A stretch of DNA of 17,698 bases from IMG/VR virus record IMGVR_UViG_3300000292_000161; one strand, 5' to 3'. This DNA comes from a virus. Lineage: Duplodnaviria; Heunggongvirae; Uroviricota; Caudoviricetes. A program made the position numbers and the translations under genes. The notes below the pieces were generated by a model, which was given only the letters and a program-made list of their open reading frames with translations, searched no databases and was not told the origin of the DNA. Positions 3,519 through 17,698 of the stretch are shown here, in pieces. Every line of letters begins with the position of its first letter. Within the stretch, counting starts at the first letter, position 1.

Positions 3519-5636
3519 CTAGTCATTATCTGGATCATTAGATAGCCAAGTAATGATGCCCAGTCTGGCGATGGTCCGTTTTTCCTGTTCAGGAAGAGAG
3601 TTAAAAAAACTCTTCCATTGAGGGGAGCGCCTGATACGTGAATCAACAATGTGCCCAGGCGCTTTTCCGTGTAGATTTTTTACTGCGCTCTGGAAGGCTG
3701 GCGAGGCAATTAATTTATCCGCAGCATCAGCCGCCCCTGCTCCACCAGCTAATCGAGCTTTACTCGCCAATCTTGCTCCAATATCAGCCCCAGCAATGGC
3801 TCCAAGCGATCCAAAATGAGCGCCTACCATCGTGCCTATTTTTTGAATGTGTTTTGCTGCTAGTTCGTATGGAGCTGTTACCCGATTAAATCTGTTTACA
3901 AACTCATTCAGCTTACCAGTAGATATTTCATGCGCTTTAGCATTTTTTATTGCTCTGGCAACTTTGTATACATCATATAGTCCGCTCATTGTTTCTTTTG
4001 GCAAATGTTCAGCCAAAGTCTTTAGCTGTCCACTGTGTTGCAAGTTTTGCCACCAATCTGCAAAGCCAGATGGATTAAAGTCGGCCCCACGCTTCCCAGA
4101 GGAAAGCATATCTCTTAATGCTGTTCCTACTAGCTCCCTTCGCAATGTTCTTGATGGAGTATTTTGCATAATCTCACGAAACCCTCTCGCATCACCTTTT
4201 GCCATAGATTGAAGAGAATTCGTTACTTTATACGCTATATCCCCATTAAGTGTTTTCCCGCGAAGATTTACCATTTGCCTTTCTAAGTTTTTTCTCATAG
4301 CTACAAGGCGTTGTGCGACTTCGAAATCTCGCAAGTATCCAGTATTGGATAAGACAGATTTTTGGTCTTCAGCTAAAGCTCCATATAGTCTTGATAGCGC
4401 TTCTTTATCAGCATCTTTGTATGGCCCCTGCTTTTTATTTAGGGCATCACCAACTAAACGCCTTTGCCTGTTTAAATTTGCATACGTTAGGATGCTATCT
4501 GGGCCGGGGTTTATTGCTGTAAAAACTCGCTTTTCTATTGGGTCAAGATTATCCCACCCTCCTAAATCATCAGCGATTTTTTCCAGCATAGTGCTTGTGT
4601 TATTTGCTTCGACTTTTGTTCTTGGTGATAGAGCGGAATCAACACGTTTATATAACTGATCACTACGGTTTTTTAGTGCTTCCATTCTACTATTTATCTG
4701 ATAAATATATTTTTCGCTCATAGCTAACGCATCTGGCGCACCAGCAACATCATCGATTATCTTGTCAGCACTAGAGGCTAATTCGCTTATTGCTTTATCT
4801 TCTTGAGCTTTTAACGCTGATCCTGTCCGTGACTTTAGGGCTTGCTCTACAGCTTGGTATTGCTCATTTCCTGATAAATGAGAAGGAAGAACTGAATCAA
4901 CATGAAGCCTATTTGCAGCCTCAACAATTTCTTTCTGAGGTTTTAGATCTAGCCCTTCAAGCGAAGAGGCAAGATTTGGGTTGCCTTGTGCAGATAACTT
5001 ACGAATTTTCTCTTCGGCAGGAGTAATCCCCTCAATATCTGGAATCGAAGAAACATTCTTCTTGGTTAATTTCCCAGCTATTTTATTAATTGCAGGGCCA
5101 GCAAGTTCGGCTACAGGGCCAGCCACAGCGCCAATAGCAGCGCCGGAAGCAACATCGCTATTTGTTCCATTGGCTACAATAGCCCCTTCTCCAGCACCAA
5201 GCCCTACGGCGGCAGCCAGTCTTGCCGCCCCTTTGGGAACCTGAGAAATAATCCCACCACCACTAACAAATGGCGCTGCTTGTCCAACGAACTCACCAAC
5301 ATCTTGTGCGGTTGATGGTTTTGCCGCTAACTTCTGCTGTAGAGACTGAATTGCGGCTTGCTCTTCTGGTGTCATATCCTGAAACAGGCCAACACCTTTA
5401 CCAACATCCATCAATCCACTGAGAACGCCATACATAAAACGGTCGAAACCGTTAGCATTATTAACAACATTTTCCTGTCTGGAATTTTCCTCTGGTGAAA
5501 CCAAAGGTGATTGCTGCTGTTCTGGTTGGGCATCAAGCACAAAACCATCAGGAAGCTGTGAACTATCAGGAAACTGTGAGTTATCAGGTTGTTCATCGAG
5601 CACAAAACCTTCCGGTAAGATTACATTTGCTGCCAT
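3519..5636 (-). CDS. hypothetical 705-aa protein, repeat-rich N-terminus, Gly/Ala-rich low-complexity tracts, C-terminal glycine-zipper-like segment
   Basis: ATG at 5636 with AGGAA 7 nt upstream; overlaps the upstream gene by 16 nt. N-terminal repeats LPEGFVLDEQP / LPDGFVLDAQP; C-terminal GAHFGSLGAIAGADIGARLA; no Walker or nuclease motifs seen. Confidence 0.8.
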   Translation of the reverse strand: MAANVILPEGFVLDEQPDNSQFPDSSQLPDGFVLDAQPEQQQSPLVSPEENSRQENVVNNANGFDRFMYGVLSGLMDVGKGVGLFQDMTPEEQAAIQSLQQKLAAKPSTAQDVGEFVGQAAPFVSGGGIISQVPKGAARLAAAVGLGAGEGAIVANGTNSDVASGAAIGAVAGPVAELAGPAINKIAGKLTKKNVSSIPDIEGITPAEEKIRKLSAQGNPNLASSLEGLDLKPQKEIVEAANRLHVDSVLPSHLSGNEQYQAVEQALKSRTGSALKAQEDKAISELASSADKIIDDVAGAPDALAMSEKYIYQINSRMEALKNRSDQLYKRVDSALSPRTKVEANNTSTMLEKIADDLGGWDNLDPIEKRVFTAINPGPDSILTYANLNRQRRLVGDALNKKQGPYKDADKEALSRLYGALAEDQKSVLSNTGYLRDFEVAQRLVAMRKNLERQMVNLRGKTLNGDIAYKVTNSLQSMAKGDARGFREIMQNTPSRTLRRELVGTALRDMLSSGKRGADFNPSGFADWWQNLQHSGQLKTLAEHLPKETMSGLYDVYKVARAIKNAKAHEISTGKLNEFVNRFNRVTAPYELAAKHIQKIGTMVGAHFGSLGAIAGADIGARLASKARLAGGAGAADAADKLIASPAFQSAVKNLHGKAPGHIVDSRIRRSPQWKSFFNSLPEQEKRTIARLGIITWLSNDPDND

Positions 5637-6964
5637 TTTCCGTTCCTGTAAATGATTTTCTGACCAGTTTTAGGGTTGGTTGCCGTTGCGCCTTCTGATA
5701 TTCCTCCGGTTGCCGCTTTTGCCTGTCCAGTGCCAGCCTGTGATGTAGGCTGCCCGGAAACATCGTCAAATAGCTTCGCTTTCCTTCTTTCAAGGCTTTT
5801 TCTTAGCCCCTGAGGAATAGTTTCTCCATATGTATCGAGATACTCGTCAACCTGCTGGTTAAACTGCTGCCCCATAGCATTGGCGTTGATTTTTGCGGCG
5901 TTAACAATGTTATCCTTTGCCTCCTGCGACAGGCCGTTTCCAGCATTAAGCTGGTCTATGTATCCTTTGATTTGTCCCCATATGCCATCAGACCGCATTA
6001 CCTGAACCTGTTCGCCTTCACGAACGACTGACTGCGGGTCAAGAGATTTCATGTAGTTGAAGATAATCCCAAGTTGGGCAGCGCCAGTATTTACCTTGCT
6101 AAGGGCTTGCAGAGAGTTTGCCGCCGCTCTGACAGAGTTATAATTTTTGCCAAAATTGGTAATGTCAGAATTTAATCCCTTAATTAAGTCTGCTGACGGC
6201 TTACCTTTTTGCCCCAGCTCCATTAGCTTCAATCCCATCTCATCTGAGTGAATTTGTGCTCGCTGAGCCCTGTCTAGTTGAGCGTTCTGGATATTTGCCC
6301 ATCCTCTCGCGTTCTCCATGTCAGCCTGACGCATACTTTCATCCAGTCGCCCTTGCTCAAGTCGACGACCTTCCATTTGATCTTTGATATCGAAATACTT
6401 CTCATGACCGAGAGAAAACAGCGCCAGATTACCTGCGAAATGCTGGAAGCCCTGCGGGTCATTAACCTGCATTTCAGCAATAGTTTCTGGAGGGATACCT
6501 AAACGACGCATCTCCTGCTCATTATCCATCATGAACCTGCCAAATGCGCCCTGACCAAGCGATGAGGCTACCTGTGCTTTGAGCGCCAGATTGCCATAAT
6601 CATCCCTTTGAGCATCATCGACATAACTCATCCCTTTACGGACTTCCTCAAACTCTTCTGGGAATGCTGTAATAAGATTACGCATCTGCTCCCTGTCACC
6701 GGACGCATAAGCATCTGCATAACCTTTCTGGAATGCCGCTTTACGTTCCTGCTGTTGCTGCTGCTTATAAATGTCAGCAACTCCAGCCAGACCACGAAGA
6801 CCTGTCAGAGCAACGTTATTTGCACCTGAGCGAGCCAGTTCATTGTTTTCGCGGATCAGACCAAGCGTTGCGTTAATGTCGCTTGCCTTTGGCGCATTCT
6901 CATTTTGCGCACCGATGCCAGCCAGAAAACCACCAGAATTAATACCCTGTTGCCACGTAGCCAT
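5621..6964 (-). CDS. hypothetical 447-451-aa Gln-rich, probably coiled-coil protein
   Basis: ATG at 6964, 4 nt after the TAA of the 57-aa gene (in-frame GTG at 6976 is the alternative start). Contains poly-Q KQQQQQERK and many Q/E/R heptad-like stretches; no catalytic motif recognised. Confidence 0.8.
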   Translation of the reverse strand: MATWQQGINSGGFLAGIGAQNENAPKASDINATLGLIRENNELARSGANNVALTGLRGLAGVADIYKQQQQQERKAAFQKGYADAYASGDREQMRNLITAFPEEFEEVRKGMSYVDDAQRDDYGNLALKAQVASSLGQGAFGRFMMDNEQEMRRLGIPPETIAEMQVNDPQGFQHFAGNLALFSLGHEKYFDIKDQMEGRRLEQGRLDESMRQADMENARGWANIQNAQLDRAQRAQIHSDEMGLKLMELGQKGKPSADLIKGLNSDITNFGKNYNSVRAAANSLQALSKVNTGAAQLGIIFNYMKSLDPQSVVREGEQVQVMRSDGIWGQIKGYIDQLNAGNGLSQEAKDNIVNAAKINANAMGQQFNQQVDEYLDTYGETIPQGLRKSLERRKAKLFDDVSGQPTSQAGTGQAKAATGGISEGATATNPKTGQKIIYRNGKWQQM

Positions 6965-6968
6965 AAAT

Positions 6969-7142
6969 TTACCCACGTCCAGTTAAAGTGTAAGCCAGCG
7001 CCTTATCCATTAATCCCCGAGCAATTTCGTGGATCGTTGGCGCAACTCCTACCTCTGATTTTTTACGCTGCTCCTCCTGAATTTTCTTTATCGCTTCCAT
7101 TTGCTTCTCACTTATCAATACTGGCTTTACTGAAATAGCCAT
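6969..7142 (-). CDS. 57-aa putative DNA-binding regulator (possibly ribbon-helix-helix), first gene of the cargo operon
   Basis: The 100-aa ORF trimmed to the ATG at 7142, preceded by AAGGGGGG. Sequence MAISVKPVLISEKQMEAIKKIQEE..TIHEIARGLMDKAL; function inferred from size and position only. Confidence 0.5.
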   Translation of the reverse strand: MAISVKPVLISEKQMEAIKKIQEEQRKKSEVGVAPTIHEIARGLMDKALAYTLTGRG

Positions 7143-7636: not shown

Positions 7637-7740
7637 CTGTACCACCTGTACCACCATGTCACAAACCCTTGTGTGGCGCGGCCTGCAGGTGGTACAGGTG
7701 GGTAAAAATGACCTCTCCCCACCTGTACAGACCTGTACCA
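7637..7740. repeat. iteron cluster 2 (GGTGGTACAGGT family, both orientations), crr-like
   Basis: CTGTACCACCTGTACCACC at 7637-7655, GGTGGTACAGGTGGGT at 7688-7703, CACCTGTACAGACCTGTACCA at 7719-7740. Confidence 0.75.
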
Positions 7741-8703: not shown

Positions 8704-8747
8704 TGGTTGTTCCCTCTCAGCCAGCCAGAAGAAATGCGTTTGTTAAT

Positions 8748-8850
8748 GGTATAGGTGGTACAGGTCTGGTATAGGTAAGATATTGACCTGTACCACTATA
8801 ACGCATTGTTTTTAATGCTGAATTAGCAAAGTGGTATAGGTGGTACAGGT
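8748..8850. repeat. iteron cluster 1, candidate replication origin immediately 3-prime of the primase gene
   Basis: Perfect 18-mer GGTATAGGTGGTACAGGT at 8748-8765 and 8833-8850, partial copy at 8768-8776, inverted copy ACCTGTACCACTATA at 8786-8800. Confidence 0.75.
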
Positions 8851-8879: not shown

Positions 8880-11307
8880 TTAAAAAACATCATAACCCCC
8901 CATACCGATCAGACGGGCAAACGCAGCCTGTAGAACTCCGACCTCTGGTAGTTCGTAGAACACGCCATTCCCTCGGTCTGGTCTTCCATGCTTCACCAGC
9001 CCCATTTGTGCAAGTGATTTACCCAGTAGTGATCTGGCAGCTGGTTCTTTAAGCTTTTCCCCACGCTCAAGCGACCACGCTACAAACCGACTAACCATAT
9101 CCTTTGCAAACAAACGGACTTCGCCATTAAACGGAGGTTCATTGATTAGCTCGCCATAAAGAAACAATTCAACGCCAGACAGCCCCAGCAAGATTTCTTC
9201 ACGTAAGGCATCGGTCTGTGGCGCTCGTTGAGGGTCAAAACCTGAGAGATCCACCCCTTTAAGATGCCAAAGCAACTTTGCGGCACCGCCATCATTAAGC
9301 CAACTGTACAGCCGATCAAAATACTCCCGGCTCTGTGCTTTTTCAGGAGATGGCTCAAGCACGAGATAGCGGCGCTCTCTTATCCCTGCCTGTAATACCT
9401 GTGTGCTGTTACTGGCAAATATCAACCGGGCAAAATTCGGCATTGGTTCAGCATCAATTCCCTTGCGCTCAAGGTTAAACGTCGGTTCGCTAATAATCGC
9501 TTTAAGTCTGTCAGCTTCAGACGGCTTGTGGATCGTCACTTCGTCAGCAAATACCAGTAGCTTGTTAGCAAGTATTGAATTGAAGCGCCCTGAAATATGT
9601 CCCGCCCCGTTAATGTGGGCGGCGTACTGCCCCAGTATTTGCAGCAGCGGTTTAACCGTTGTGCCTTTCCCTGTGCCCGGGACAGATTTCATCACGATTG
9701 CCACGGACGGTTTTTCATCAGGCTTTTGGATAATGTGCGCCATCCACTGGATAAGATATTGGTATGCCTCTTCATTACCGGCACAGACAACCTGCAACAG
9801 GTGATTAAGGTATACCGTGCAATCTCCTTCAATTGGTTCCAGTGCCAGCCCCTCATACAGATTAAAAACATCGTCAGGGCATTTGTCTGGTACTGGATAA
9901 AATCCTACGCCTCCTGGCTTGTAGTTCTTCCCACTCCATGACAGCCACGCCGATCCCGCCAGCTTTCTGGCGACTCTCGGTTTATGATGAAAATAATGCT
10001 GAAATTGTGATAAATCCTCGAAAACGTGCGATACACCGCCGGTTTGAGAAGGCTTTAGCGACACCACCTTGTGTTTCCCGCCGATGGTGACATGCGTAAA
10101 CGTCCGGTTGATTTCTTCGAGGACAGCAATTTCATCATCGCTTAACACCTCGCCAGAACTGATCTCATTCAGCGCCCCGACTGACTGTTTGTGATTTTTC
10201 ACCTGCGCCCCTTTCCCCCGTGGCTGGTACATCGAATCTTTAAATGCTGCTGTGGCTGCCGCCAGCCCGTGTTGTTGGTGATAGTCGTTCCAGTCGGCTT
10301 TATAGTCAGTCGGTGGCAGAGACACCCAGCCAGCTACGGAAATAGCGGCCCTCTCTGCGGCATCTTTCCCCGTGTTGATCCCTCCACTTTCGGAGTTTCC
10401 TTGCTGGTGATCGTTATCTGCGGCAATGATGATTTGTGCCTGTGGATATGTTCTGCGCATGACTTCCGCTACTGGCAACAGGTTGCCAGCGTCGATTGCT
10501 GCCACTGTCATTGCGTCAGGGCGAATTAAATGGCACGACAGGGCGGTAGCCACCCCCTCAGCAATTATGNNNNNNNNNNNNNNNNNNNNNNNNNNNNNNN
10601 NNNNNNNNNNNNNNNNNNNNNNNNNNNNNNNNNNNNNNNNNNNNNNNNNNNNNNNNNNNNNNCTGTGCGTTTATGGCGTGATATGCCCCTCGCTTTGCTG
10701 AACCTGTCAGGAGTCTTTTTTCACCATGTGAGGTAATAGTCTGTGCTGCTGTAACTGCGCCGGATTTATCCACCAGCGCCAGCAACAGAGATCCATCGGG
10801 CAACACAGGGAATGTAAAATCACCTACCCCTTTCGCAACCAGATAATCAGATTTGCCGTTTACAGCCTTTCTGCGCATGTCATCAAACTGACGGGAAAAC
10901 GTATCCCGTCTTTGTTGTTCGTCCTTCTCTGCCCTTTTCAGGCGCTCCTGTTCGCGTCGCTGGCGCTCGGTTTCCAGTTGTTCCCGTTTCTGGCTGGTGG
11001 CTTCTGGTGTTTCCGTTGTCCGGTAATCAATACCCAGAACATCAGCGGCAAGCAGCGCCGCCTCTGTTGTGTCGCAGTTATTTACGCGTTTAATTAAATC
11101 CAGCCCATCACCAGCGCCGCACTGATTACAGATGAAGCTACCGCGCCCGTTGTCATCGAACCGGAATCGGTCTTTGCCCCCACATGCAGGGCAGGGAGCA
11201 TGACGGCGCGGAGAGTCAGGGACATTTATGTTCAGGCAGCCCAGCACATGAGGCCAGTTGTTTTCAGACGCACTGATAACCTGACGGATAAGATCAATGT
11301 TTCGCAT
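8880..11307 (-). CDS. P4-type DNA primase/helicase (Zn-ribbon + TOPRIM + D5-like P-loop NTPase), interrupted by an assembly gap
   Basis: N-terminal piece (10558..11307) has CPACGG...CNQCG zinc ribbon; C-terminal piece (8880..10553) has IIIAADND (TOPRIM-like) and P-loop VPGTGKGTT. ATG at 11307 with SD ACGGGGG. Frame across the gap is uninformative. Confidence 0.85.
10570..10662. other. assembly gap (93 N) inside the primase gene
   Basis: Run of n characters read directly from the sequence. Confidence 0.99.
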
Positions 11308-14661: not shown

Positions 14662-15093
14662 TTAGGCGGCGTTAAACGCGTCCGGGTAGAGTTTCAGAAT
14701 GTCGGCAATTTCCTGCTGAGAAAGTCCGTTGTGATCATTTATGTTCGCAAGATGGTTAACATGAGTGATCACTTTCAGAACATCACCACGGCAGGAGAAA
14801 CGGTAGCGAAGGTGTGTTCCGATACCATCAGGATTCTTTTCGTCGATACGCTCCAGAGTGATTCCAAGCTGGCGTTCTAACTCTGTTGCATAGTTACGAC
14901 CAGAAGACAGACGGCAGTAGCGAAGAATGTCATTTTCTGTCCATCCCTCTATACCAGTACGCAGCATATAGACTCGGGCACGATGCTTTTTCGGTGTGCG
15001 CTTTGGTGCTTGAAGGGATTTTGTAAGGGGCGTAATATCAGATACGCGAATATCTGAATTAGCCGCCTGTAATGGGCGGTTTTTCTTTTCCAT
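14662..15093 (-). CDS. hypothetical 143-aa protein, possible winged-helix regulator
   Basis: ATG at 15093 overlaps the alpA stop by 1 nt (TGATG). No motif confidently recognised. Confidence 0.7.
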   Translation of the reverse strand: MEKKNRPLQAANSDIRVSDITPLTKSLQAPKRTPKKHRARVYMLRTGIEGWTENDILRYCRLSSGRNYATELERQLGITLERIDEKNPDGIGTHLRYRFSCRGDVLKVITHVNHLANINDHNGLSQQEIADILKLYPDAFNAA

Positions 15094-15311
15094 CAGGCCA
15101 CCTTCCCGCGGCGTTCTGCCAGCCAGTTATTAATTTCCACCGCATCAAACGCAGTCACGTTATCTGTTAGCTTCACTGGGCGTGGAAGAGTGCCATTTTT
15201 AACCCATCTATCAATAGTAGGCAGTGAAACACCTAGCAATTCCGGCATGCGAAAGCGACGGATGTATCCAGTTGTTGGGATAGCTGATGATGCTGGCTTG
15301 TGTGCTGTCAT
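15093..15311 (-). CDS. alpA: AlpA-family transcriptional regulator/excisionase
   Basis: 72-aa protein whose RMPELLGVSLPTIDRWVKNGTLPRPVKL matches the AlpA/Vis HTH pattern; first gene after a 470-bp AT-rich regulatory region. Confidence 0.85.
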   Translation of the reverse strand: MTAHKPASSAIPTTGYIRRFRMPELLGVSLPTIDRWVKNGTLPRPVKLTDNVTAFDAVEINNWLAERRGKVA

Positions 15312-15376
15312 ATCTCTAGTAACCTCTCTGATAGCTCATGAAGTTACTTAAAGTTTAGTGGTTGCCCATACAGTAT

Positions 15377-15462
15377 TTCTATTAAGACTAGAATCTATTG
15401 AAAGAAATTATAAATCTATTGAAAAAATACCGATCCACTGAAAGATTGCAAATACAGGTGGG
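15377..15462. promoter_or_regulatory. phased repeat array in the alpA-operon control region
   Basis: ATCTATTGAAA at 15393 and 15414 (21-bp spacing), related TTCTATTAAG at 15377-15386 and CACTGAAAG near 15436; TACAGGTGGG (iteron-core-like) at 15453-15462. Confidence 0.4.
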
Positions 15463-15782
15463 ATAATTATTTTCTTTATTTTCAATTAGTTACCAGTTTA
15501 AAAAATCATTGTTTTATCAAAGAGTTATATCTTTCATCGTCATTCATCATGTTTTTACATTTCTTTTTATCTTTTATTATTCAATTGGTTGAGTCGGTTT
15601 ATAATGGCTCATGATGGCTTAAAATGGCTAATGATAGCTGGCGTATCTTTTAGAGATGGGGTGATTACAGATGAACTAAGCCGAACAGATATAGCAATGG
15701 CTAGGCATAGAATTATCTATGCTGGTGGAGATGGGTAAACAGGTAATGCCCCGCCATTGCTTTGGAGGGGCGTGAAAAGTGA

Positions 15783-16433
15783 TTAGTCGAGATCGTGGAC
15801 AGCTAATAAAGCCCGTGAGATTTTTTCTAGGAATGTGGCTTTTGCTATTCCTTTATGGGATATCCCTTCATCCTTGATTAAGGTTTCTATGTCACGGTAT
15901 ATAGCTGTGCGATTAGGTTTCCCATTTTGGATGTAGGAAGATGAGCCTGATTTTTTTATCAGCAGATGTACTATCAACCCCATCATTTTCATTGTCCCGT
16001 TTTCCTCATCCTGCTTTCTATGCTGCCCACGTCCGCTGCGGTTGGTTTCTTTGATGTAGTTTACTAACTGGAGTCCTCCAAGGTTTCGGGCTTTTTCTTC
16101 CCAGCCCTTGGTGCCACGCAAATCATCAATCGCTTCTGATATTTTCTGAACAATTATTTCTGGTGTATTTGTGTCAATAAATGGGTAAGAAGCTAAGAAA
16201 ATATCAAGGGCATGGCAAGGCTCGTCTTTACTAGTTTTTTCACCTCTGTACACCTTGATAGCTCTGGCAAGATGAGTTCTGACAAAATCGACATATTCGA
16301 AATTTTCCTCAGGCACATCGCTAATGCGCATAGATGGGTTTAGGCCAGCCAAGGCCACAGCCATTTCATGAGGGGTAATCGATACAGATGAACAAAGCCG
16401 TTCGATTGGCGATTTTCTCAAGATGTTGTTCAC
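15783..16433 (-). CDS. hypothetical 216-aa protein, AT-rich cargo gene coupled to the integrase
   Basis: ATG at 16433 is adjacent to the integrase stop (16430-16432). Visibly lower GC than the integrase; no motif recognised. Confidence 0.75.
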   Translation of the reverse strand: MNNILRKSPIERLCSSVSITPHEMAVALAGLNPSMRISDVPEENFEYVDFVRTHLARAIKVYRGEKTSKDEPCHALDIFLASYPFIDTNTPEIIVQKISEAIDDLRGTKGWEEKARNLGGLQLVNYIKETNRSGRGQHRKQDEENGTMKMMGLIVHLLIKKSGSSSYIQNGKPNRTAIYRDIETLIKDEGISHKGIAKATFLEKISRALLAVHDLD

Positions 16434-17698
16434 ATTTGCCTCCGGGCTTTATCGAATGGCGTTACGTTGTAGTCTTTCCCGCTTTCCAGTGCCACCAGCA
16501 GATCAGCCCACTGTGCCAGCGCAGCTTTACGCTCATCAAAATACTGATGGCGGTTATAAATCCCCTCCACACCCTTAATGCGATGATTGAGGCATCGTTC
16601 CGCTACGACAGGATCAACACCCAATGCTGCTAAATGAGTACGTGCGGTACGCCGGAAGTCGTGAATCGTGAAATTAGGCACATCCGGCATTTCGGCGCGA
16701 ACCTTAGCCAGTGCTACGGGTAAAGTGCTTTCCTGAATATGTGGGATCATTCTGTTTTGCATCTTCCTGGCTGGAAGCACCCATGCGCTATTACATGAAA
16801 AGGTGTGTAGCTCTCTCAACCATTCAACGGCTGGGGAAGGTAGAGGTATATCAATAGGGTCTCCGTTTTTGCTGCGTTCTTCCGGCAAATGCCATACCGC
16901 ACCATCTAAATCAAACTCTTCCCATCGTGCGGCGCATAACTCCATCTTACGAACGCATAGTGCCAGCAATAGCTTAAATGTCAGTTCGTTCTGGCGGCTG
17001 AATCCTTTTGCGGTGCGCATAGCCTCGAATAGCCTGATAAGCTCATCGCGAGTTAGCCAACGGTCGCGGGAAACCTCTTTACCACCAGCATCAGATACTT
17101 CAAACGCTGAACAAGGGTTTATCTCCAGAGCGTGGCGTTTTATCCCATAGTCAAAGATACGGCGTGCCCAGCGTAATACATCTGTTGCTATCGTTGGTGC
17201 TCCTCGGTCAACGATACCTTTCAACATGTCGTCAATGTGGCGTGGCTTAACGTCCTCTACCTTCATATGCCCAATGCAGGGGTTAATATCCTTATCAATT
17301 CTCCGGCGAAGGATATCGGGATGTTTCCATCTCGGAAGTATCTGGCGCTCGAAGTATTCGGAGGCCAGATCTGAAACACGCATGGCGTTTTTCTCAGCCT
17401 CCATTTTTGCCAGTGCTTCAGCTTTTCGTTCCTGTTTCTCTGCTGCTACGTCATAGCCAAGAGCAACTCTGGCTGACAGCTCTTTTGCTGTTTCTCTGGC
17501 TTTTGATAGTGACAGTTCGGAGTAAGAGCCTATAACCATAGCCCGCTGCTTTCCTGCGAGCTTATAGCGGAATCGCCAGAACGGGACTGTGTAGTTTTTG
17601 GGGTAGCAAATATAAAGGCCGTTGCCGTCTGCCTTGCCATCAAATCTGTCTCCCGCCTTTATCCATGCGCGGATCTGCATATCTGTGAGTTTTGGCAT
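16430..17698 (-). CDS. int: P4-family tyrosine integrase (site-specific recombinase)
   Basis: 422 aa, ATG at the window edge (17698). N-terminal arm-binding pattern (GKADGNGLYICYP...FRYKLAGKQRAMVIGSY) and C-terminal catalytic motifs (IHDFRRTARTHL, GIYNRHQY). Confidence 0.95.
   Translation of the reverse strand: MPKLTDMQIRAWIKAGDRFDGKADGNGLYICYPKNYTVPFWRFRYKLAGKQRAMVIGSYSELSLSKARETAKELSARVALGYDVAAEKQERKAEALAKMEAEKNAMRVSDLASEYFERQILPRWKHPDILRRRIDKDINPCIGHMKVEDVKPRHIDDMLKGIVDRGAPTIATDVLRWARRIFDYGIKRHALEINPCSAFEVSDAGGKEVSRDRWLTRDELIRLFEAMRTAKGFSRQNELTFKLLLALCVRKMELCAARWEEFDLDGAVWHLPEERSKNGDPIDIPLPSPAVEWLRELHTFSCNSAWVLPARKMQNRMIPHIQESTLPVALAKVRAEMPDVPNFTIHDFRRTARTHLAALGVDPVVAERCLNHRIKGVEGIYNRHQYFDERKAALAQWADLLVALESGKDYNVTPFDKARRQM

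Follow-up and report, generated by a model that had tools for sequence, protein, structure and literature searches.

The 17,698-nucleotide stretch of viral DNA analysed here (IMG/VR record IMGVR_UViG_3300000292_000161, hereafter the window) is nearly all one mobile element, an EcCIMP1-like phage-inducible chromosomal island (PICI) adjoining yicC in Escherichia coli, in which the open reading frame (ORF) directly behind the P4-type integrase gene (int) encodes a protein of 216 amino acids (aa), ORF216. We tentatively propose, with a confidence just short of even, that ORF216 is a cassette-encoded, sequence-specific DNA-binding regulator of the promoter of alpA, the next gene of the island, which in related PICIs encodes the master activator of the cycle (PMC6092414, PMC11773190). 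Helper phages induce the alpA promoter (PalpA), yet for Gram-negative PICIs neither a repressor nor the inducer supplied by the phage is known (PMC6092414, PMC11773190); ORF216 is possibly the repressor or sensor so far missing there. An earlier note on this DNA, made from the sequence alone, had pointed to anti-phage cargo at this position, and we consider a swappable regulator of satellite induction the more likely role.

The regulatory role is indicated by the rigid linkage of the ORF216 family to a conserved repeat array on the presumed alpA promoter. The gaps upstream of alpA in distant cassettes cannot be aligned apart from one segment directly upstream of the gene. In ORF216-family cassettes three to five same-strand repeats of the consensus YTTYRATRGAW are found, about 20 bp apart, and the four repeats of the window begin 131, 112, 91, and 75 nt upstream of the alpA ATG. 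Where family cassettes were inspected by eye, a TAnnnT hexamer follows the end of the last repeat at a distance of 18-19 nt, and this hexamer would most simply be the -10 element of PalpA; with this spacing, the last repeat would cover the -35 position of the presumed promoter. Copies were counted with the 10-nt regular expression YTBRNWRGAW, on the same strand and within 170 bp upstream of alpA, which yielded 2-5 matches at a spacing of 16-21 bp in each of 16 cassettes of the ORF216 family (family B below) and 0-1 in 24 cassettes of other families, where 0.1-0.2 are expected by chance. Among five loci outside the motif definition, the array is present in four (L124, L125, L126, and an allele from O157:H7), L014 has it too, and it is missing from L127, a locus with a truncated integrase gene and no alpA. 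Altogether the array is kept in 20 of 21 ORF216-family cassettes, and in the window, where the motif otherwise occurs at chance frequency, the array is its only cluster.

Co-variation with the array is moreover seen for ORF216 alone. The nearest AlpA relatives of the window's own AlpA (93% identity) are found in cassettes without the array, and the AlpA proteins of array-bearing cassettes range from 92% identity to undetectable similarity, which speaks against AlpA as the array reader; the integrase and the downstream proteins are poor candidates as well, since sister islands without the array encode them at 95-99% identity. These comparisons argue against binding by AlpA, Int, or a downstream island protein. 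A helper-phage activator is an unlikely reader, because the array is common to satellites that must use different helpers and is not shared by sister islands of the same backbone. IHF, with the consensus WATCAANNNNTTR, was considered too and judged unlikely, as the conserved GGAA/AGAW part of the repeats falls in the unspecified N positions of that consensus and its TTR part is not kept.

Comparison with sister islands inserted at the same yicC site delimits the block to which gene and array belong (Table 1). Integrase identity in these islands is 99% as far as position 16458, similarity resumes at 15283-15347 with about 95% identity in the downstream genes, and the slot genes in between, encoding proteins of 321, 281, 316, and 293 aa, are unrelated to ORF216. 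The gene and the promoter region are exchanged as one block, which supports a regulatory role. An integrase scan with one genome per species gave 80 loci, and in 33 of these int is followed by alpA, the interval measuring 0.8-1.2 kb with a single same-strand ORF in 27 of the 33. At least four non-homologous families occupy the slot across these loci, namely family A (281-353 aa), family B, i.e., the ORF216 family (216-237 aa; 12 loci plus two at contig ends), families C and D, and further singletons. Profile-profile comparison detected no homology between slot families; the idea that all slot proteins are homologous, raised by eye from N-terminal helix-turn-helix-like and C-terminal 'RHxxxxE...LL' motifs, was dropped, with a best hhalign P of 0.02-0.2. 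The slot genes of four sister islands (L004-L007) gave nothing usable against Pfam, NCBIfam, and PADLOC. The earlier note had anticipated a variable slot, and had held that conservation of the gene in all related elements would tell against its proposal; the slot does vary, and no such conservation is seen.

Table 1. Features of the integrase-alpA region, in window coordinates.
Feature	Position	Strand	Basis or remark
Swappable cassette: last ~9 integrase codons, ORF216, AT-rich gap, first ~9 alpA codons	15284..16457		blastn breakpoints against L004, L005, L006, L007
P4-type tyrosine integrase, 422 aa	16430..17698	-	Pfam Arm-DNA-bind_3 8.9e-20, Phage_int_M 7e-17, Phage_integrase 6.7e-17
Shine-Dalgarno GGAGG, 5 nt upstream of the ORF216 GTG, within the integrase coding sequence	16439..16443	-	read from sequence
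ORF216 (WP_001059729.1), 216 aa, uncharacterised all-alpha protein	15783..16433	-	GTG start
AT-rich non-coding gap with the alpA promoter region, 471 bp, GC 0.338	15312..15782	-	
Distal repeat set	15603..15761	-	three GCCATT-containing repeats at 15603-15637 and 15696-15710
Phased array of four same-strand repeats: TTTCAGTGGAT, TTTCAATAGAT, TTTCAATAGAT, (T)CTTAATAGAA	15377..15443	-	
Putative -10 hexamer TAAACT of the alpA promoter	15352..15357	-	inferred from comparison of upstream regions
alpA leader hairpin AGTAAC...GTTACT, enclosing the alpA Shine-Dalgarno	15318..15348	-	
alpA	15093..15311	-	Pfam Phage_AlpA 6.1e-6

A variable slot is likewise what accessory cargo would produce, and ORF216 might be a single-gene anti-phage or helper-interference factor or a host-benefit gene, the array then being one allele of the promoter, recognised by a factor of the host or the helper and only linked to the gene, an explanation we regard as doubtful though by no means negligible. 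At least four unrelated families share the position, accessory and immune genes of PICIs have been described near int, and according to published statements accessory genes can sit between int and the regulatory module; slot genes of other families have their own upstream gap and a terminator-like hairpin, in the manner of morons (independently transcribed accessory genes), and ORF216 lacks a recognisable regulator fold. The two roles may even coincide, for Stl of Staphylococcus aureus pathogenicity islands (SaPIs) is reported to be both regulator and defence factor (PMC11846896). However, nothing points to the anti-phage function that had been proposed: ORF216 has no PADLOC, Pfam, or NCBIfam defence signature, no catalytic motif, no enzymatic or effector domain, and no partner gene. 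Nor does the slot behave as the defence hotspot to which it had been likened, being a constant interval of about 1 kb with one same-strand gene, unlike the known hotspots, and the family is rigidly tied to the repeat array at the alpA promoter. The array and its phasing have been kept across satellites with different helpers, whereas the rest of the gap and the protein (about 25% identity) diverged, and a more typical cargo region lies at the far end of this island.

For ORF216 as a regulator of PalpA, we surmise the following course. Translated with the integrase from the int transcript, ORF216 would be present while the island is quiescent, and its basic C-terminal module would bind the four phased repeats, which abut or overlap the presumed -35 position of PalpA. 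Binding would control the access of RNA polymerase to the promoter and so gate alpA transcription, and with an active helper phage present, AlpA would then set off excision, replication, and packaging. As to the direction, repression lifted by a helper-phage product, as by an Stl-like sensor-repressor, seems more likely, since int would be expressed in the quiescent state and a repressor inactivated by a helper product is then more natural; AlpA did not control the int promoter in EcCICFT073 (PMC6092414). Activation at PalpA is the alternative direction, and a promoter without a -35 element that is flanked by tandem direct repeats fits an activator equally well. In either case the gene and its operator would move together as one replaceable module, in the style of an immunity cassette.

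It is tempting to extend this to the whole slot, so that the int-alpA interval would be an immunity-like regulatory cassette in which non-homologous DNA-binding sensors, each with its own operator repeats, silence the island and set the inducing helper, an extension which we hold to be rather unlikely as it stands. Some cassettes of other families carry repeats or palindromes of their own at 21-bp spacing directly after the stop codon, e.g., GGAATATTCC twice and ATAACCGGYTAT twice (matched in 0-2 of 300 shuffles), and others show only a hairpin; that each slot family has its own repeats is suggestive, not established.

The gene itself is real and under purifying selection, with a ratio of nonsynonymous to synonymous substitution rates (dN/dS) of 0.08 for L028 versus L008, the sole pair with unsaturated dS, and a mean column identity of 78% over 12 homologues. 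Its GTG codon (16433-16431) overlaps the integrase TGA (16432-16430) with four nucleotides shared as GTGA (local sequence ...cccGGAGGcaaatGTGAacaac). Homologues begin at the same position, usually with ATG, and have the N-terminus KSPIERLCxSVSITP in common, which supports the start call, and translational coupling of ORF216 to the integrase is plausible from this arrangement. The earlier note had described the gene as starting at the integrase stop, as markedly more AT-rich than its neighbours, as followed by an AT-rich region, and as lacking any recognisable motif. The start and the AT-rich region behind the gene are as described; the AT-richness of ORF216 itself is borne out only weakly (42.5% GC, compared with 49.6% in int, 48% in alpA and the next gene, and 46% in the whole window). 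Concerning motifs, ORF216 has no domain or defence match in Pfam and NCBIfam and no PADLOC family at E <= 1, and the sole family match is phrog_30524, whose function is not annotated (E 3e-34, residues 11-209 of 216). In a protein collection clustered at 90% identity, ORF216 (15786-16433) is grouped with integrases of 417-447 aa. The link between them is a representative of 431 aa on a 1.6-kb ENA contig, probably a gene call in which int and ORF216 are fused or form a chimera, so that the cluster name 'integrase' is misleading for ORF216.

The protein is split in charge, the N-terminal 130 aa being acidic (pI 5.6) and the C-terminal 86 aa basic (pI 9.75). The best conserved motifs, GRGxHRKxDE...GxxKSTFYxK, lie in the basic part, and the dipeptide TP at residues 90-91 is invariant. 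Two relatives, P0045 and P0049, share only the C-terminal 80 aa, i.e., the basic module; both lie between int and alpA, and both genes are followed by paired GGAA/TTCC palindromes 21 bp apart, a context that points to the C-terminal module as the putative DNA-reading part of ORF216. The AlphaFold model is confident (predicted local distance difference test, pLDDT, 90.5), with no structural relative found for it and no regulator fold recognised, and it suggests that the uncharacterised ORF216 family has a new fold. Searches of the family for a helix-turn-helix returned only weak sub-threshold matches in one or two members each.

Several points weigh against ORF216 as a regulator of PalpA. No DNA-binding fold could be recognised in the model, and the putative helix-turn-helix in it has an unusually long turn of 8 residues. 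The assignment of the alpA promoter rests on sequence only. The motif was partly defined on the loci on which it was scored, and several of these are close relatives, so that the 21 cassettes amount to about 10-12 independent lineages. The co-occurrence of gene and array could moreover be plain physical linkage within a block inherited whole. Regarding the slot, L043 appears to have no slot gene (182-bp interval), and the slot of EcCIMP1 holds a different small ORF, EcCIMP1_002 (PMC11773190). EcCICFT073 appears by its ORF numbering to lack a slot gene and is nonetheless helper-inducible (PMC6092414), which indicates that a slot regulator is not universally required.

The overlap with the integrase stop and the tight linkage to int throughout the family would also suit a recombination directionality factor or an accessory of the integrase, produced at a constant ratio to Int and shaping the intasome or the bias between excision and integration, and phased direct repeats resemble Xis-type binding arrays. 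We nevertheless find this improbable. ORF216, with 216 aa, is not a small winged-helix excisionase of the Xis, Vis, AlpA, or TorI type, and the family has no excisionase or AlpA Pfam match above threshold, Phage_AlpA reaching only E 0.02-0.07 in 2 of 29 members. No array lies in the att arms: the only one is that upstream of alpA, at a fixed distance to this gene and some 2.3 kb away from attL and the 5' end of int. Neither gene nor array is present in sister islands whose integrase is 99% identical, and alpA and int suffice for excision in related PICIs (PMC6092414, PMC11773190).

The AT-rich gap holds further elements besides the array. A leader hairpin upstream of alpA is present in 14 cassettes of all slot types, as judged from single-sequence folds, with stems that vary between GTAAC/GTTAC, CTAAC/GTTAG, ATAAC/GTTAT, and the inverted GTTAC/GTAAC; these compensatory changes across cassettes suggest a conserved structured element that may control translation or stability. 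Directly after the ORF216 stop, a promoter-like TTTACC-16-GATAAT lies between the two arms of a 16-nt inverted repeat (15693-15708, 15746-15761). The distal repeats in this region have a core, AATGG, that resembles the proximal array, and they differ among family cassettes; one protein might bind both sets with looping of the DNA between them. No intrinsic terminator was found after ORF216, and the first 160 nt behind its stop (15623-15782) are C-rich and G-poor on the transcribed strand, with a C/G ratio of 2.1 and a ratio of about 2 in 9 of 14 family cassettes. This tract, together with the missing terminator, suggests a possible Rho-utilisation site that would insulate alpA from int-ORF216 read-through. 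Rfam returned no family for 14900-16600, and a sub-threshold match to CRISPR-DR10 was taken as chance.

An AT-rich region with direct repeats about 20 bp apart has the classical look of a replication origin, in which case the repeats would be iterons and ORF216 an initiator or origin-binding protein. We rejected this origin as very improbable. The identical ORF216 protein is found alongside either of two primase modules, the gap is missing from sister islands that share the downstream genes, and the array stays at a constant distance from the -10-like hexamer and from alpA. In PICIs the origin has been mapped downstream of pri (PMC10111431), and in the window short iteron-like tandem repeats (GTGGTACAG/TGGTATAGGT) at 8747-8850 directly follow the primase stop. 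Tandem repeats with the same GGTACAG/CTGTACC core recur at 7637-7655 and 820-846, and together they probably mark the replication origin. A similar palindrome, GGTACAGT...ACTGTACC, is seen downstream of family-A slot genes in the sister islands L019, L034, and L006.

A profile search among 1.84 billion representative proteins delimits the ORF216 family to 34 clusters at 50% identity, most of them of about 210-240 aa and matching end to end. Of 5,426 complete E. coli genomes, 110 have the exact cassette and about 90 others, O157:H7, O103:H2, and O111:H8 among them, an allele of about 70% nucleotide identity. Scans of IMG/VR and metagenomes with the ORF216 protein of the window found close relatives only, and IMG/VR scans with two distant family members gave no matches. 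The context was read in the window and in loci L003, L008, L011, L014, L016-L056, L099, and L124-L126. Every family member with a readable context lies 0-12 bp (in one case about 100 bp) behind a P4-type integrase and is followed by an AT-rich gap of 260-670 bp and then alpA, the integrase directly preceding the gene in 20 of the 21 loci examined; this context is kept among proteins that are only 23-35% identical. The islands themselves differ in their replication and packaging modules (DUF5906, DUF927, AAA_25, a capsid-forming PICI, and one with a P2-type capsid gene), the capsid-forming PICI being vB_KppS-Ant, which was recovered as an induced particle. Our literature searches found no description of ORF216 or of any regulator between int and alpA.

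The island that fills the window is 99.99-100% identical to the one that many E. coli strains, AF18 among them, have between yicC and dinD, and its integrase is annotated in E. coli genomes as a tyrosine-type recombinase beside yicC. On the minus strand, the integrase gene, ORF216, and the 471-bp gap are followed by alpA, genes for a PM1773-family protein, an AntA-type antirepressor, DUF4222, and Ash, and several small ORFs; the same strand also carries genes for a Zn-ribbon/Toprim/DUF5906 primase, two P22-type ejection proteins, a CapP-like ImmA/IrrE peptidase with a small partner, and PerC. Pfam matches to int, AlpA, AntA, Ash, Zn_Ribbon_Prim/Toprim/DUF5906, and PerC back the assignment to the PICIs, as do an alpA located downstream of int, a primase gene, co-directional genes, a size of about 15-20 kb, site-specific insertion, and the lack of capsid, tail, and lysis genes. 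The P22 injectosome genes (Inj_translocase 2.5e-73) depart from the usual PICI gene set. They occupy 3519-6976 on the minus strand, where the Inj_translocase gene is accompanied by a 705-aa neighbour, named 'injection protein' in sister records, and such unusual PICI cargo fits parasitism of P22-like helpers.

At the far end, the CapP-like metallopeptidase is encoded at 1329-2198 on the minus strand (PADLOC capP 4.9e-25, Pfam Peptidase_M78), alongside a partner of 125 aa, and the sister record NZ_LT599831.1 (L002) has an Abi family gene at the matching position (15038-16015). It is here that the conventional variable or defence cargo of the island seems to be located. A run of N at 10570-10662 (93 positions, corresponding to 17 nt in the identical AF18 island) artificially splits the primase-helicase gene into 10558-11307 and 8880-10553; the gene is not a pseudogene, the apparent split being an artefact of this run. 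The record NZ_LT599831.1 is a separate linear record of 19,226 bp in the assembly of E. coli NRZ14408, named phage_14408_2, which duplicates the chromosomal island of the strain and may be an excised or packaged form caught by the assembler; it has an ORF216 identical to that of the window and a different primase module.

ORF216 thus offers a defined candidate for how Gram-negative PICIs are silenced and how alpA is switched on, consisting of one protein, four repeats, and one promoter, and present in about 200 of the 5,426 complete E. coli genomes. If the interval proved to be an immunity-like cassette in general, it would explain why near-identical islands differ only in a 1.2-kb block, it would fill the place of Stl, for which Gram-negative PICIs have lacked a functional counterpart ever since their description, a swap of the cassette would re-target the satellite to a new helper, and the slot would offer a way to predict or engineer helper specificity. 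Should that idea prove wrong, the slot would nonetheless supply several families of conserved single genes, so far uncharacterised, that merit a screen for anti-phage activity.

Among described systems and families, the full-length match makes ORF216 a member of phrog_30524, which, being without an annotated function, is silent on mechanism. The defence hotspots of P4 satellites and PICIs (Rousset 2022; Fillol-Salom 2022; He 2024, PMC11364771) resemble the slot in being position-specific variable loci between conserved core genes, but they range widely in size and gene number and hold recognisable defence systems, whereas the slot spans about 1 kb, contains one gene without a defence signature, and includes the alpA promoter. 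The closest functional analogue of ORF216 is Stl/Rpr of the SaPIs and Gram-positive PICIs, which is likewise adjacent to int and extremely variable among similar islands, and which controls the island launch promoter (PMC6092414). The diversity of Stl/Rpr is thought to reflect different helper-phage inducers (PMC6092414), and some repressors of this type are also antiviral (PMC11846896). ORF216 has no sequence or fold similarity to Stl/Rpr and is not a member of that family. Stl is divergent from the genes that it represses, whereas ORF216, int, and alpA are all on the minus strand, with ORF216 co-directional and coupled to int; the proposed target of ORF216 is moreover the activator gene alpA and not directly a whole operon, and its binding and de-repression are proposals only. 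In heteroimmune lambdoid phages, the repressor gene and its operators are exchanged as a block, the immunity cassette. The ORF216 gene and its adjacent cis sites similarly co-vary and are swapped between the conserved 3' flank of int and 5' flank of alpA, although the sites are direct repeats rather than palindromic operators, and neither CI/Cro homology nor a divergent promoter pair is present.

EcCIMP1 differs from the present island in its attachment site (proA/yagU rather than yicC) and in its slot gene, EcCIMP1_002 being a different ORF of about one tenth the size of UvrB that is mis-annotated as UvrB-like. The two islands are alike in int, an alpA downstream of int, the AntA-type antirepressor, Ash, the primase, PerC, and genes shared with a P22-like helper. 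For EcCIMP1 itself, mobilisation by the P22-like phage Kapi1 and helper-dependent induction and packaging have been shown, and its PalpA (-449 to +50 of alpA) is helper-inducible and autoactivated by AlpA, with alpA as the master regulator (PMC11773190).

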